From the IMG/VR virus record IMGVR_UViG_3300044295_000306: a DNA stretch of 64,000 nucleotides; one strand, written 5' to 3'. This DNA is from a virus. Taxonomy: Duplodnaviria > Heunggongvirae > Uroviricota > Caudoviricetes. Positions within the stretch are counted from its first letter, which is position 1. Each line of letters opens with the position of its first letter. Shown here in pieces: positions 44,891 to 53,844 of the stretch. A model generated the notes under the pieces. It ran no database searches. It was not told the origin of the DNA and worked only from the letters and a program-made list of their open reading frames with translations. A program made the position numbers and the translations under genes.

Positions 44891-45868
44891 TTAAAATATA
44901 TTAGTAATAATACCTTTTTCTATAGTAACAACTTGACCTGTTGATGTTGTTATAGTACCACTAGCAGCATCAGTAACACCAAAAGATGAACCAGTAGGAA
45001 CTTCAACAACAGCAGCTTGTAATATGACTCTAGCTGGAGAACTTATTTTTATATTACCGTCCTTTATTTCAATACCGGATTTACCTGTCTTATCATTCAA
45101 TGATACAACGGTACCAGCAATATTAAAATTTCCATTAACTTTGACATTAACATCACCCTCAACATAAACATTATCATTACCTATAACTACGGTAAATTTA
45201 TCTTTCTGAATTCTTTCCACTCTAGTACCATCGGCTTGATATTCTGTGTAAGAACCTGAACGATGATAAAAATGCAGTCTTTCTGCACCCGGAGTATCGT
45301 CTATCTCAATAGCATGTCCTGATTCAGATTCATATACATTATTATAAGGTGGAACAGCAGCATAACCTGATGCCGGTTCTTGATCAATTTTTCGAGCAGC
45401 TTTTAGAGCGTTGATAGATTTATCGTTTGATTCATTTCTATACAGTCTAGATGAAGTAGGTTCATCTAGATTTCTAGGATAATTTGTGGCTGATTCATTG
45501 GGTTTAACTGGTGCAGCATTTAGTTGTTCTTGTGTTCTACCATCATTAAATCCACTATTAGGAATAGCAGCATTTAGTGGTATGGATGGAAATACGCCCA
45601 AAATGACTGGTTGTTGAGCATTTTTCCCATCAATAAACATTCCAAATACTTGATCAGATTCTTTCGGAGCATAAGGATTACTATTATTTACAGGTAATAA
45701 TGATTGAGCCCAAGGCAAACTTGATGTTGGAAGTTCATTTTTATTATTTGTATGTCTACCGAGAATACGAACACGAACTCTTCCTAAATTTAAAGGATCT
45801 TGTCTATCCTCAACAATACCAACAAACCATTCCGGATTAATGGAACTTTCTTTAAACTGTTTATCCAT
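44891..45868 (-). CDS. gp5: Baseplate hub/central spike gp5 (OB-fold plus beta-helix, no lysozyme domain)
   Basis: WFVGIVEDRQDPLNLGRVRVRI.G.H, LPWAQ, ESESGH.IEIDDTPGAERLH.YHRSGSY.E. Confidence 0.93.
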   Translation of the reverse strand: MDKQFKESSINPEWFVGIVEDRQDPLNLGRVRVRILGRHTNNKNELPTSSLPWAQSLLPVNNSNPYAPKESDQVFGMFIDGKNAQQPVILGVFPSIPLNAAIPNSGFNDGRTQEQLNAAPVKPNESATNYPRNLDEPTSSRLYRNESNDKSINALKAARKIDQEPASGYAAVPPYNNVYESESGHAIEIDDTPGAERLHFYHRSGSYTEYQADGTRVERIQKDKFTVVIGNDNVYVEGDVNVKVNGNFNIAGTVVSLNDKTGKSGIEIKDGNIKISSPARVILQAAVVEVPTGSSFGVTDAASGTITTSTGQVVTIEKGIITNIF

Positions 45869-49108: not shown

Positions 49109-49116
49109 TATTTATA
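49109..49116 (-). promoter_or_regulatory. T4 late promoter TATAAATA for the gp48 operon, overlapping the gp4 start in a 32-bp divergent spacer
   Basis: Exact consensus on the minus strand. Confidence 0.8.
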
Positions 49117-49547
49117 TGACTTATCACGGTAAATTCCATCCTCAAAACCCTAAAAAATACAAAGGCAATGCATCGAACATTGTTTTTAGATCGTCTTGGG
49201 AACTTCGTGTCATGAAATATCTCGACACAAACACATCCATAATCTGGTGGGCATCAGAAGAATTACCAATTCCATACTATTCTCCAGTCGATAAAAAAGT
49301 ACACAGATACTTTCCAGACTTTATAGTGCGTGTAAAAACCCGCGATGGCACAGAAAAAACATATATTCTTGAAGTAAAACCTGAAGCACAAACAACTTTA
49401 AGAGAACCAAAAAGAAAAACAAAACGATTTATAACTGAAGCAATGACTTACGCAATAAATCAGGCCAAATGGAAAGCAGCAACAGAATTCTGTCTGGATC
49501 ATGGCTGGACGTTCAAAGTTATAACTGAAAAGAATTTAGGTTTATAG
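49116..49547 (+). CDS. gp4: Head completion nuclease gp4 (TnsA-like)
   Basis: GKF.P.NP.KY.G...IVFRSSWE, WASEE..IPY, HRYFPDF, EVKP, NQAKW.AA. Confidence 0.93.
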   Translation: MTYHGKFHPQNPKKYKGNASNIVFRSSWELRVMKYLDTNTSIIWWASEELPIPYYSPVDKKVHRYFPDFIVRVKTRDGTEKTYILEVKPEAQTTLREPKRKTKRFITEAMTYAINQAKWKAATEFCLDHGWTFKVITEKNLGL

Positions 49548-49562: not shown

Positions 49563-50156
49563 ATGGCTTATTTAATAGACAGAATAAACGAACAATTAGC
49601 TAAAACCGGACTTGAATCGAGAACTAGAAATTCGAGGGAATGGCTTAAGGCACAAGTAAAATCATTGCGTCCAGATAGACGTTTAATGATGAAGGATCGT
49701 GAAAATCTTCGAAGCAAGACAATGATTGGAAGAATGTACTTCTTTTTCTATGATCCTAAAACAAAAGAAACATTACCTTATTATGATCGATTTCCTCTAG
49801 TTTTACCCATTCAACGATATCCAGATGGATTTCTAGGTTTGAATTTGCATTATATTCATCCTAAATATAGAATAATTTTATTAGACAAACTAAGTAGATC
49901 ATTTCTCAATAATGACAAATGGGATGAAACAACACGATTTCGTTGGAATTATCCTATTTTAAGTAGAGCGGCAAAAGCTTTTGAAAAAACACCATGTATA
50001 AAGAGATATTTATTCACACACATTGAATCGCGTTTTCTTGAAATAACCGCTGATAAGTGGGATATTGCAGCATTATTGCCTGTTGAGTATTTCAGAAGTG
50101 AAAATAGACCTGTAACTAAAAACAAAGTATTTACCGACTCAAGAAAGATGTTCTAA
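49563..50156 (+). CDS. gp2: DNA end-protector protein gp2
   Basis: GRMYFFFYDPK.K..LPYYDRFPLV, FLGLNLHY, CIKRYL. Confidence 0.93.
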   Translation: MAYLIDRINEQLAKTGLESRTRNSREWLKAQVKSLRPDRRLMMKDRENLRSKTMIGRMYFFFYDPKTKETLPYYDRFPLVLPIQRYPDGFLGLNLHYIHPKYRIILLDKLSRSFLNNDKWDETTRFRWNYPILSRAAKAFEKTPCIKRYLFTHIESRFLEITADKWDIAALLPVEYFRSENRPVTKNKVFTDSRKMF

Positions 50157-50977
50157 TGCCATTCGCTCCCGGACAATTTATTTCTAATATTAATGCTCAT
50201 GATGGACTTGCACGTCCTAATAGATTTGAAGTAGTTATTCCTATTCCTCAAGGTATTGGTGAGGCAAAAACACCATTTCTAGGACAATTGGTTGACGCGA
50301 TTAGAGATCCAGTAAGTGCAGTAAAGGCTTTCTTTTTTAATAGTCAATCAGATACCGGTAAAGAAGAATTACAGAATAATGTAAAACAAACGGATGTTAC
50401 GAGATGGCTTGCATTTCAATGTGAACAAGCTGAATTACCAGGTAAAAGTATAATGACTATAGATCAAAAGATTTATGGACCTTCATATAAAATACCTTAT
50501 AAACAACAATATAATGATATTTCACTAAATTTCTTAGTTACAAATGAGTTTTTTGAAAGAAAATTATTTGAGATGTGGCTTAATTCAATGGTATCGTGGG
50601 AAACGAACAATGCCAGATTTGCTAAAGGCAAAGATGGTTTTATGACTGACATTACAATAATTCAATATGATGATTCGATCAAAAGAATTTATTCTGTAAA
50701 ACTTCTTGATGCATTTCCTATTGGTATAGCACCAATGCAATTATCTTGGTCACAAGATGGATTTCATACTATGTCTATAAATTTTGCATATACACGATAT
50801 GAAATTCTATACGATTCTGCATATAATCTTGAAGATGCTGCAAGTGCTATATTTGGCGCTGCTGGTGCTAAACTATTTTCAAAAGCAACAAAAGGAATTT
50901 CAAATACAATATCAAATCCAATCAACAAAATAATTGGAAGTTCTGCTGGACAAAAACTTGGAAGATTGATTTTTTAA
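50156..50977 (+). CDS. gp54: Baseplate tail-tube initiator gp54
   Basis: GLARPNRFEV, CEQAELPGK, YGP..KIPY, F..W.NSM, FPI.I..MQLSW; tube-like fold. Confidence 0.8.
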   Translation: MPFAPGQFISNINAHDGLARPNRFEVVIPIPQGIGEAKTPFLGQLVDAIRDPVSAVKAFFFNSQSDTGKEELQNNVKQTDVTRWLAFQCEQAELPGKSIMTIDQKIYGPSYKIPYKQQYNDISLNFLVTNEFFERKLFEMWLNSMVSWETNNARFAKGKDGFMTDITIIQYDDSIKRIYSVKLLDAFPIGIAPMQLSWSQDGFHTMSINFAYTRYEILYDSAYNLEDAASAIFGAAGAKLFSKATKGISNTISNPINKIIGSSAGQKLGRLIF

Positions 50978-50993
50978 TTAATGGAGAAATAAT

Positions 50994-51731
50994 ATGGCTT
51001 TGCCAAAAATTGATGTGCCTATTTATGAACTAAAACTACTATCATCAAAACAAAAGATTAAATTTCGTCCTTTTCTAGTAAAAGAGCAAAAATTATTCTT
51101 AATGAATAATGAGGACGATGATACAAATTCTACAGTAAATGTTATACGACAAGTCTTAAAGAATTGTGTTCTAACTGAAATTGACATAGATAATTTGCCA
51201 GTTTTTGATCTTGAGTATCTTTTTGTAAATCTTCGTGCAAGGTCTGTATCAGAAGTCGTTGAATTAAAATATCGTTGCAATAATACCATAAAGAATGGAG
51301 ATGAAAAAGAAGATTCTGTTTGTGGTACAGTTAATGATATTTCTTTTAATCTTCTAGAAATTAAACCAGCAACATCAACAGATCATGACAATAAGATCAG
51401 TATTACAGATAAAATGGGTATTGTGATGAAATATCCTACTTTTGAAGTTATGCAGAAAGCCCAAGGCAAATCTGAAAATGAAATGATTCTTGATTTAATA
51501 TATTCATCTATAGATTATGTATGGGATGAAGATGAGATTTACTATGCAAAAGATCAATCAAAAGATGAAATTATTGAATTTGTTGATAATCTTCAACAAA
51601 AGACACTTGAAAAAATGCAAAAGTTTTTTGAGACTATGCCAAAAATGAAAAAAGATATTGAATATAAATGTAAAAAATGTGGATATAATGAGAATATTAC
51701 AATACAAGGAATCCAGAATTTTTTCGGATAA
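50994..51731 (+). CDS. gp26: Baseplate hub assembly protein gp26
   Basis: MALPKIDVPIYEL, FRPFLVKEQK, FDLEYLFVNLRARSV.E, CKKC, IQGIQNFF. Confidence 0.92.
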   Translation: MALPKIDVPIYELKLLSSKQKIKFRPFLVKEQKLFLMNNEDDDTNSTVNVIRQVLKNCVLTEIDIDNLPVFDLEYLFVNLRARSVSEVVELKYRCNNTIKNGDEKEDSVCGTVNDISFNLLEIKPATSTDHDNKISITDKMGIVMKYPTFEVMQKAQGKSENEMILDLIYSSIDYVWDEDEIYYAKDQSKDEIIEFVDNLQQKTLEKMQKFFETMPKMKKDIEYKCKKCGYNENITIQGIQNFFG

Positions 51732-51768
51732 GTTTATATTATGATAATTTGCAAAATTATTATAAAAC
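51719..51768 (+). promoter_or_regulatory. Candidate -1 ribosomal frameshift signal (T TTT TTC plus 3' hairpin) joining gp26 to gp51
   Basis: Heptamer at 51719-51725 in the last codons of gp26; -1 frame open to 51925; hairpin 51732-51768. Confidence 0.65.
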
Positions 51769-51925
51769 TAATTTTGCTCTAATGCAGCATCACAAATACA
51801 GTCTTACGGAACTTGAAGAAATGATACCGTGGGAAAGAGAGATATATTTGGGACTTTTAATCAGTTATTTGAAAGAAGAAAAAGAAAGAATAGAACAAAA
51901 AAATGCAATTAGAAAAAGAAGGTAA
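51725..51925 (+). CDS. gp51: gp51-like baseplate hub assembly region in the -1 frame (first ATG at 51782), missed by ORF track
   Basis: RISLYYDNLQNYYKTNFALMQHHKYSLTELEEMIPWEREIYLGLLISYLKEEKERIEQKNAIRKRR*; NYY.TNFALMQHHKYSL...PWER is the gp51 signature of marine/freshwater T4-likes. Confidence 0.85.
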   Translation, partial: RISLYYDNLQNYYKTNFALMQHHKYSLTELEEMIPWEREIYLGLLISYLKEEKERIEQKNAIRKRR

Positions 51926-51927
51926 AA

Positions 51928-53844
51928 ATGGCAAAAGAATCTAGAGCAGCAGAAATATTTCGATCACAATTAAAAAATCAAGGTATTCTCAGTTCTTTTG
52001 CAACAACCGCAAAAGAAAGAACTAAAGAGAAATTAGATCCTCGTAATTGGCTTTTGCCAAAAAGTGGATTCTCTGGTGCTATTTCTGAAAAGATTTTTGG
52101 TAAAGGTTATAAAAGCGGTGGTATGAAAGATAGAACAGGAACTATTTCTGATGGTTCTAGATATCTTGTATCTTCAATGAATGATGTTGGCACAAAATTA
52201 GATGATACAAATACAAATCTAAAAATAATAGCAAAAAAATCATTAGTTCTTCCTTCAATTCATCAAGATACAAATATTATTAGACAAAATGTAAGTAAGA
52301 TAGTTAAGCTCATGGGTGGAACGGCTACTAGAAAAACAGATATGTATTTCTTGAAGTCGAAAGAAAGAGAAGAAGCTTATGAAAATCAATTTAATAAAGA
52401 AAATGCTAAAAAACAAGAACCTACTAAAGAAGAGCCTACTAAAGAAAGTAAAAGCGGCGGCATCTTAGGAAAAATATCTAATGAAATAATTTCATCTATG
52501 ATGAACGGTATAATTAGTTCTATAACATCCTTTTTCAGCCCTGCTAATTTATTGAAACAGTTGGTAACAAAATTCCCATTAGCCATATTGATCGGTTCGA
52601 TAGCTAATGGATTTATTGATGGATTTAAAGAATGGCAGGAAAGTGGTGAATTAGGAAAAGCAGCATTAAAATTTTTAAGCGGACTTACGTTTGGATTTTT
52701 AGATGAAAAGTTTTTTCAAGATAATATTATAACTCCTATTGTTGATTTTATTGAAAATAGTGTTAAAGCTATAAAAGATGTATTTACTGGTAAAAAAGAT
52801 CAAATAAAAGAATTAGAAAATTTAGAAAAAAAACCTGAAGCAGACAGAAGTGAGGCAGATAAAAAAAGAATTGAAGAATTACATAAAAAAAACGTATATA
52901 GAACACCAGGAGAAGCAAGAAAAGCAGCTTTAGAAGCCAACAAAAAAAGATATGGTCCTGAACCCACTGAACCTACTGAAGCTGCTCCAACACCAGCACC
53001 AACTCCTGTTCCAACACCAGCAGCTACAGGCAGTACATCAACACCAGCAGCTACAGCACCAACTAAATTTGCAGAGACAAAAGCTGGCGGTGTTACAGAT
53101 ACTACAAAAGTTCCTTCTAGTATGAACTTTGATTATAATTCATATGCTAATGCTTTAGGAAAAAGAGAAAGTAGTAACAATTATAACGCAGATAATCATC
53201 TAGGATATATTGGAAAATATCAATTAGGATCAATGGCACTTGAAAGTGTAGGGCTAATGAAACCTGGATCTGGGAAAAAAGGTTTTAAATCAACATATGA
53301 TTCTTCAAATTGGAATATTAATGGAGGTTATCAATCATTTTTAAATAATCCAAAAATGCAAGAAGATGCTATGAAAAAATATACTATGATGAATTTAAGT
53401 TCTTTAAAAAGATTAAATGTTATAAATGATAACTCCTCGGAACAAGATATTGCAGGAGCTTTAAGTGCTGCACATTTAAAAGGACCAGGCGGCGCAAAAG
53501 ATTTTATTCTTGGTGGTAAAGAAAGTAAAGATGCTTTTGGTACAAAAATTTCAGAATATTTTGATATAGGTAAAAAATCACAAAAAGAAAGTTCAACAAA
53601 TATAGCACAAGTAGCTTCAGCACCTACAACTGGATCGTCAATTTCTTCAGCATCAACACAAGTAGCAACAGCACAAAGACAAGAAATGGCCGCATCACAA
53701 TCAGCAGCTACACCATCCGTTGTTGCACAACAAAGTACACCAAGACAACAATCACAATCCGGAAAAGATCAATTACTTACAGCAGAAACAGCAAGAAATA
53801 CTTCATTTATGGATTATCTCCAATCAGCTTACATACCAACATAA
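51928..53844 (+). CDS. Tape-measure/gp29-like protein with C-terminal lysozyme-like domain
   Basis: Long helical N-half, PAPT linker, ALGKRESSNNY....GYIGKYQLG motif; follows gp26-gp51. Confidence 0.7.
   Translation: MAKESRAAEIFRSQLKNQGILSSFATTAKERTKEKLDPRNWLLPKSGFSGAISEKIFGKGYKSGGMKDRTGTISDGSRYLVSSMNDVGTKLDDTNTNLKIIAKKSLVLPSIHQDTNIIRQNVSKIVKLMGGTATRKTDMYFLKSKEREEAYENQFNKENAKKQEPTKEEPTKESKSGGILGKISNEIISSMMNGIISSITSFFSPANLLKQLVTKFPLAILIGSIANGFIDGFKEWQESGELGKAALKFLSGLTFGFLDEKFFQDNIITPIVDFIENSVKAIKDVFTGKKDQIKELENLEKKPEADRSEADKKRIEELHKKNVYRTPGEARKAALEANKKRYGPEPTEPTEAAPTPAPTPVPTPAATGSTSTPAATAPTKFAETKAGGVTDTTKVPSSMNFDYNSYANALGKRESSNNYNADNHLGYIGKYQLGSMALESVGLMKPGSGKKGFKSTYDSSNWNINGGYQSFLNNPKMQEDAMKKYTMMNLSSLKRLNVINDNSSEQDIAGALSAAHLKGPGGAKDFILGGKESKDAFGTKISEYFDIGKKSQKESSTNIAQVASAPTTGSSISSASTQVATAQRQEMAASQSAATPSVVAQQSTPRQQSQSGKDQLLTAETARNTSFMDYLQSAYIPT

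Follow-up and report, generated by a model that had tools for sequence, protein, structure and literature searches.

The lambda tail assembly chaperones gpG and gpGT reportedly depend on a −1 frameshift, said to have been described by Levin et al. in 1993 and found to be conserved by Xu, Hendrix and Duda in 2004, and a frameshift of phage P2, E/E+E′, is likewise attributed to Christie et al. in 2002. The review of Leiman et al. (2010; PMC3004832) counts gp26 and gp51 among the chaperones of hub assembly, with gp51 required but absent from the particle. As represented by the papers that cite them, Vladimirov, Gautam and Davidson (Virology 2022;566:9–15; PMID 34826709) identified gp26 and gp51 as the tail assembly chaperones (TACs) of T4-like phages. 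Where it cites that work, the PRFect paper (PMC10885494) describes some T4-like phages in which a short TAC gene and a longer, fused one take the place of frameshifting; the phage Adele paper (PMC12846349), citing the same work, refers to poly-T slippery sequences in T4-like TAC-N genes. The idea of a gp26/gp51 frameshift, which a preliminary description had put forward for the present locus, is apparently already covered by the 2022 paper. Our literature search returned no paper that reports the gp26/gp51 slip directly, the content of Vladimirov et al. being taken here from its citing papers.

Here, we analyze a 64,000-nt stretch of DNA (hereafter, the window) from an uncultured freshwater T4-like phage. 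We consider it highly likely that its gp26 gene makes two proteins by programmed −1 ribosomal frameshifting, a short form and a gp26–gp51 fusion, and our results support the preliminary description in this core reading of a lambda G/GT-like shift onto a gp51-like tail. The locus is a well-supported, unannotated case of the published kind.

RESULTS

The gp26 gene lies between a tail tube family gene and a putative tape measure gene

The window contains a T4-like baseplate and tail module with the following genes.

Minus strand: gp6, gp25, a gp5-like gene, gp53 and gp48
Plus strand: gp4, gp2, a gp54/gp19-family tube gene, gp26, a gp51-like ORF and a 638-aa gene
50156–50977, plus strand: gp54/gp19-like tail tube family gene, directly 5′ of gp26 (phrog_45 tail tube, E = 9.4e-42)
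50994–51731, plus strand: gp26, predicted short chaperone form (TAC-N), 245 aa, ending in NFFG and a stop
51928–53844, plus strand: putative tape measure, 638 aa, with a lysozyme-like domain at residues 388–568

The order gp4-gp2-gp54-gp26-gp51 also occurs in phages nt-1 and phiM7. PF08722, the N-terminal domain of TnsA-like endonucleases, is a further match (E = 1.1e-22) of the gp4-like head completion protein (49116–49547; phrog_218).

The 638-aa gene has its own Shine–Dalgarno (SD) sequence, GAAGG, inside the coding region of the gp51-like tail. Its protein matches phrog_27932 across residues 388–568 and, weakly, NF052397; the search against NCBIfam gave nothing useful. A long ORF directly follows the −1 ORF in 54 unique relatives, with lengths from 521 to >768 aa, and the counterpart in phage Cr30 is annotated as a tape measure and matches phrog_794. 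Comparison of the 638-aa protein with T4 gp29 and the Cr30 tape measure was marginal (E = 0.008) or empty by blastp and reached an hhalign probability of 0.5%. The name tape measure, which the preliminary description had used for the gene just downstream of the shift, therefore derives from position, size and length variability, and a significant match to T4 gp29 was not found. Given the lysozyme-like domain of the putative tape measure, and a gp5-like hub gene (44891–45868) that encodes only 324 aa, the cell-wall hydrolase of this phage may sit on the tape measure and not on gp5.

A slippery heptamer leads from gp26 into an open −1 frame

The 3′ end of gp26 reads CAG AAT TTT TTC GGA TAA and contains or adjoins the following elements.

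51706–51710, plus strand: SD-like AAGGA, possible stimulator, 8 nt 5′ of the heptamer, as read from the sequence
51719–51725, plus strand: slippery heptamer T_TTT_TTC in X_XXY_YYZ register
51725–51925, plus strand: −1 frame extension, gp51-like C-terminal tail, 66 aa and stop (51923–51925)
51727–51773, plus strand: AU-rich hairpin, weak and lineage-specific; core 51740–51750 pairs with 51754–51764 around a GCA loop
51729–51731, plus strand: 0-frame stop TAA, one codon past the heptamer

From position 51725, the −1 frame translates as R-I-S-L-Y-Y-D-N-L-Q-N-Y-Y-K-T-N-F-A-L-M-Q and onward. The predicted long form (TAC-NC) joins 50994–51725 to 51725–51925 and has 244 + 66 = 310 aa; its junction peptide would be ...QNFFRISLYYDNLQNYYK, spanning ...NFF-RISLYYDNLQNYYK. 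Candidate start codons in the −1 frame are a TTG at 51749 and a first ATG at 51782, both lacking an SD sequence. The preliminary description is accurate here throughout: the heptamer has the position and register it gave, the −1 frame stays open as far as 51925 and would yield the ~310-aa fusion, AAGGA lies where it was reported, and the first ATG has no clear SD sequence.

Across both strands, the window contains 58 copies of TTTTTTY, compared to 107 ± 15 in dinucleotide-preserving shuffles. This depletion over positions 1–64000 would fit an avoidance of slippery U-runs. A lone TTTTTTY is nonetheless not rare, and the significance of the heptamer consequently comes from its conservation.

The predicted fusion is colinear with T4 gp51

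We compared the two reading frames with protein families and with the T4 proteins. The window gp26 matches Pfam PF12322 (T4_baseplate) over profile positions 2–218 of 219 (E = 3.9e-59) and phrog_150 (E = 1.1e-65). The −1 peptide matches phrog_634 with its residues 2–63 (E = 5.3e-27), phrog_150 at columns 238–277, and T4 gp51 at residues 207–244 (blastp, E = 3e-5). Against PF12322, T4 gp26 scores E = 8.8e-64 and residues 1–201 of the 249-aa T4 gp51 score E = 3.9e-52; in PHROGs, T4 gp51 covers phrog_150 columns 13–280, compared to 14–235 for gp26. The small ORF that follows gp26 in one relative (L088:1558–1695) carries the precomputed annotation Pfam PF28602, 'Gp51_C', a link that comes from the annotation of this equivalent ORF, the Pfam-A copy searched here being without PF28602.

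A MAFFT alignment of T4 gp51 with the predicted fusions of the window, S-PM2, ACG-2014i, nt-1, Cr30, phiM7 and locus L065 runs colinear through the junction without an indel, and T4 gp26 ends at the end point of the short form. T4 gp51 therefore consists of a gp26-family domain and the same C-terminal tail, so that the architecture of the predicted fusion exists as a natural single chain and, in T4, a pair of paralogous genes supplies the two forms. The preliminary description had rightly stated that T4 genes 26 and 51 are arranged differently, but it missed that gp51 has a gp26-family domain of its own ahead of the tail, which is the best evidence for its reading. A frameshift would also solve a puzzle noted by Sullivan et al. 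(2010; PMC3037559), who found that cyanophage and marine vibriophage gp51 lacks the first ~200 aa and is only ~20% as long as its T4 counterpart: gp26 itself would supply these 200 residues, joined on by the shift.

The 3′ end of T4 gene 26 (L004:2303–2340, minus strand) reads GAG TTC TTT GAG TTA CTA TAA. It keeps the Phe-Phe pair as TTC TTT, which breaks the U-run and leaves no heptamer. Judged by its sequence, T4 gene 26, which has a separate gene for the long form, is a natural reverse control.

The heptamer and the −1 frame are conserved across relatives

Relatives were anchored by tblastn with gp26 and comprised 80 IMG/VR loci (57–78% identity), three cyanophages, nt-1, Cr30 and phiM7. 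The 86 intact junctions came from 79 of the IMG/VR loci, the three cyanophages, Vibrio phage nt-1, Caulobacter phage Cr30, Sinorhizobium phage phiM7 and the window. We found that all 86 keep T_TTT_TTY in register together with an open −1 frame, which is the conservation that the preliminary description had proposed as a check on the gp26 3′ ends of relatives. The −1 frame is 57–67 aa long in relatives, and TTTTTTC is followed by exactly one codon and then a stop in 84/86 junctions.

Column entropy within the heptamer is 0 among 63 unique ungapped junctions. The codon before the run varies in its amino acid (AAT, AGT, GAT, TCT), with a constant final T. The first −1-frame codon after the slip is CGN (entropies of 0, 0 and 1.77); in this codon only the wobble base varies, which in the 0 frame is a second codon position, so the 0-frame residue wanders among Gly, Ala, Glu and Val. 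Over the next 22 codons, the entropy by −1-frame codon position is 0.44, 0.28 and 0.93, which is a coding pattern. The coding constraint switches to the −1 frame from the first codon after the slip, and the gp51-like tail is under purifying selection. A tblastn search with the 66-aa peptide reached 544 phage records, and in most alignments the match begins with residue 1, within what is annotated as the 3′ end of gp26.

Endings of the form F-L-x in place of F-F-x were present in ~20 of 150 representatives of 50%-identity clusters. We inspected the DNA of three enders without the FF pair; two F-L cases have TTT TTG and TTT TTA and so retain the heptamer (T_TTT_TTG, T_TTT_TTA), one L-F case has C_CTT_TTT, and the gp51 tail is open in the −1 frame in all three. 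The U-run outlasts the amino-acid change at the heptamer.

Alternative routes to the gp51-like tail

The same protein would result if RNA polymerase added one U within the U6 run and the transcript were then translated normally into gp26–gp51. The site is indeed a homopolymer, T6 generally and T7 in Cr30 and phiM7, and because the product is identical either way, the comparative evidence does not separate the two mechanisms. Bacterial and phage RNA polymerases usually need runs of ~8–9 or more to slip efficiently. The same A-site slip from UUC to UUU is established at T7 gene 10 (G_GUU_UUC). That slip is echoed in the phage Adele paper (PMC12846349). Moreover, the strict X_XXY_YYZ register and the C_CTT_TTT variant, which has only five U, fit tandem tRNA slippage better. 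We regard slippage of the polymerase as very unlikely, and the ribosome would be the machine that slips.

A second explanation has no recoding at all, the gp51-like ORF being translated alone as a product of ~47–58 aa, either from the TTG at 51749 or the ATG at 51782, or by termination–reinitiation after the gp26 stop. Databases annotate the ORF in this way, the window has the in-frame TTG, and an ATG overlaps or just follows the stop (TAATG/TGATG) in nt-1, Cr30, phiM7 and S-PM2. Against this, 40/67 unique junctions lack an ATG upstream of the conserved YY motif (N-Y-Y-K-T-N-F), and 23/67 lack a GTG and a TTG there as well. The sole conserved Met of the −1 peptide, at +19, comes after 19 conserved residues and has no SD sequence, whereas the −1-frame constraint begins at the heptamer itself. 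Separate translation also leaves the invariant U-run and the TTC TTT of the T4 control unaccounted for, and T4 gp51 carries the tail joined to a gp26-like domain. We therefore judge it highly improbable that the tail is made only as a separate peptide; it is only in relatives where TAATG or TGATG occurs that a free gp51 peptide is plausible as an extra route.

An error of assembly or sequencing that split a single ORF, or a decaying gene whose tail is a pseudogene remnant, is scarcely credible: homopolymer runs are error-prone and one IMG/VR relative has a −1 ORF cut at 41 aa (L021:3223–3350, ending ...MPWKEKYM and stop; probably a contig indel), but the same frames and stop spacing recur in 86 independent assemblies, including isolate genomes of distant lineages, which excludes assembly error, the window sequence is present in several independent sequencing runs, which are listed as freshwater metagenome DNA and include no RNA, and the tail is under the selection described above.

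Candidate stimulators of the frameshift

The preliminary description had pointed to the AU-rich hairpin 3′ of the heptamer. The hairpin exists in the window, with the core pairing listed above (MFE −7.2 kcal/mol, z = −2.33; 4/200 shuffles fold as well), but RNAalifold on 50 relatives gave no consensus structure and covariation not above shuffles, and we rejected it as a conserved stimulator. Some cyanophages have stronger stems at the equivalent place, in other registers. To our knowledge, downstream structure is not obligatory at −1 frameshift sites, and lambda G/GT needs none.

Upstream of the heptamer, a G-ending codon precedes a conserved Gly, creating GAGGG or AAGGG ~9 nt 5′ of the run, in 53/72 unique ORFs (74%, counted irrespective of phylogeny), compared to a background of 20.5% for the same codon pairs. 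This codon bias suggests that the SD-like element is a stimulator in the gp26 group; the window has a weaker version, CAAGGA. The second conserved feature is the spacing of the 0-frame stop, one codon past the heptamer in 84/86 junctions. On our reading, the stimulators would be the SD-like GGA/GGG 5′ of the heptamer and the stop 3 nt past it.

These observations can be joined into a broader reading of the large marine and freshwater T4-like group, which we offer tentatively, as possible rather than probable. The shift would be driven by the upstream SD-like GAGGG/AAGGG ~9 nt 5′, through a dnaX-like rRNA–mRNA interaction, together with the 0-frame stop 3 nt 3′, and not by downstream structure; the one-gene form would be ancestral, and the two-gene form of T4 would have arisen through duplication and loss of the U-run.

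The N-terminal domain of gp26 resembles known tail assembly chaperones

We modeled gp26 with AlphaFold2 from 143 sequences (pLDDT 95.1, pTM 0.88). In an exhaustive VIA-align search, the top three of 48,161 chains, all aligning to model residues 1–94, were YqbN (3klu; Z 7.3, 85 aligned, rmsd 4.1), HK97 gp13 (2ob9; Z 7.3, 84 of 104, rmsd 4.0) and Rbstp2171 (3fgx; Z 7.0), and the next unrelated chain had Z 4.3. According to PMC9603447, this trio constitutes the solved tail assembly chaperones in Pell et al. 2013. The Z-scores are middling, and it is the specificity of the top matches to the model that supports a TAC fold for the N-terminal domain. Foldseek with the gp26 model against the PDB found nothing at E ≤ 0.001 (2ob9 appeared only at E = 1.8), and gp26 profiles searched against the PDB by sequence found nothing meaningful. 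A complex predicted for the −1 peptide and the gp54-like tube protein encoded upstream scored 0.00, with uncertain folds, and speaks neither for nor against binding.

Four cysteines of the window gp26 are nearly invariant and fall into two pairs, C95 with C110 and C226 with C229 (CxxC), and T4 gp26 and gp51 have Cys motifs at the aligned positions. The cysteines probably form a zinc-binding site in a domain that lambda-type chaperones lack.

DISCUSSION

By the mechanism that we propose, most ribosomes would read AAU UUU UUC GGA UAA and release the 245-aa gp26 (TAC-N). In a minority of cases, two tRNA-Phe, on UUU in the P site and UUC in the A site, would slip back one base onto U_UUU_UU, and reading would continue in the −1 frame as CGG AUA AGU ... 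to give the 310-aa gp26–gp51 fusion (TAC-NC). The short and long forms would be the counterparts of T4 gp26 and gp51. By analogy with lambda G/GT, the pair would chaperone the tape measure and the hub at the initiation of the tail tube, would be required to assemble the tail and would not be part of the virion; the long form would bind the tape measure through its N domain and the tube or hub through its C extension. We infer both the ratio of the two forms and these binding partners.

The practical value of the locus is in annotation; scientifically, it is confirmatory. The preliminary description had proposed that gp51 is routinely mis-annotated as a short standalone gene, and this was borne out in the seven public phage records that we inspected, where the tail is a tiny separate gene or is unannotated and a joined CDS is present in 0/7. 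The gp26 family comprises 4,122 clusters at 50% identity. Annotation pipelines should emit a joined CDS at the gp26–gp51 junction.

Several described systems come close to the window locus. T7 gene 10A/10B (G_GUU_UUC) shares the slip of the A-site tRNA-Phe from UUC to UUU, and E. coli dnaX shares an upstream SD-like element, which at the window locus lies ~8–9 nt 5′ of the site and is enriched in relatives; the genes of both systems are unrelated to gp26. T4 gp26 and gp51 are homologous proteins, gp26 corresponding to the short form and gp51 being colinear with the predicted fusion. The genetic arrangement is different: T4 has two divergently transcribed paralogous genes and a gene 26 end without a slippery run, whereas the window phage has one gene and a −1 shift.

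Lambda gpG/gpGT is similar in having a short and a long form with a common N-terminus. The window gene has a tube-family gene on its 5′ side and, on its 3′ side, a long gene that is tape-measure-like by position, size and length variability. Its N-terminal domain is TAC-like in the model, which, with the heptamer and the colinearity with T4 gp51, supports the preliminary assignment of gp26 and gp26–51 as G/GT equivalents. In contrast, the two systems have no detectable sequence similarity and differ in their heptamers (G_GGA_AAG in lambda, U_UUU_UUC in the window). The window gp26 also exceeds its lambda counterpart by ~100 aa and has an additional Cys-rich domain, and the C-terminal tail has only 66 aa.
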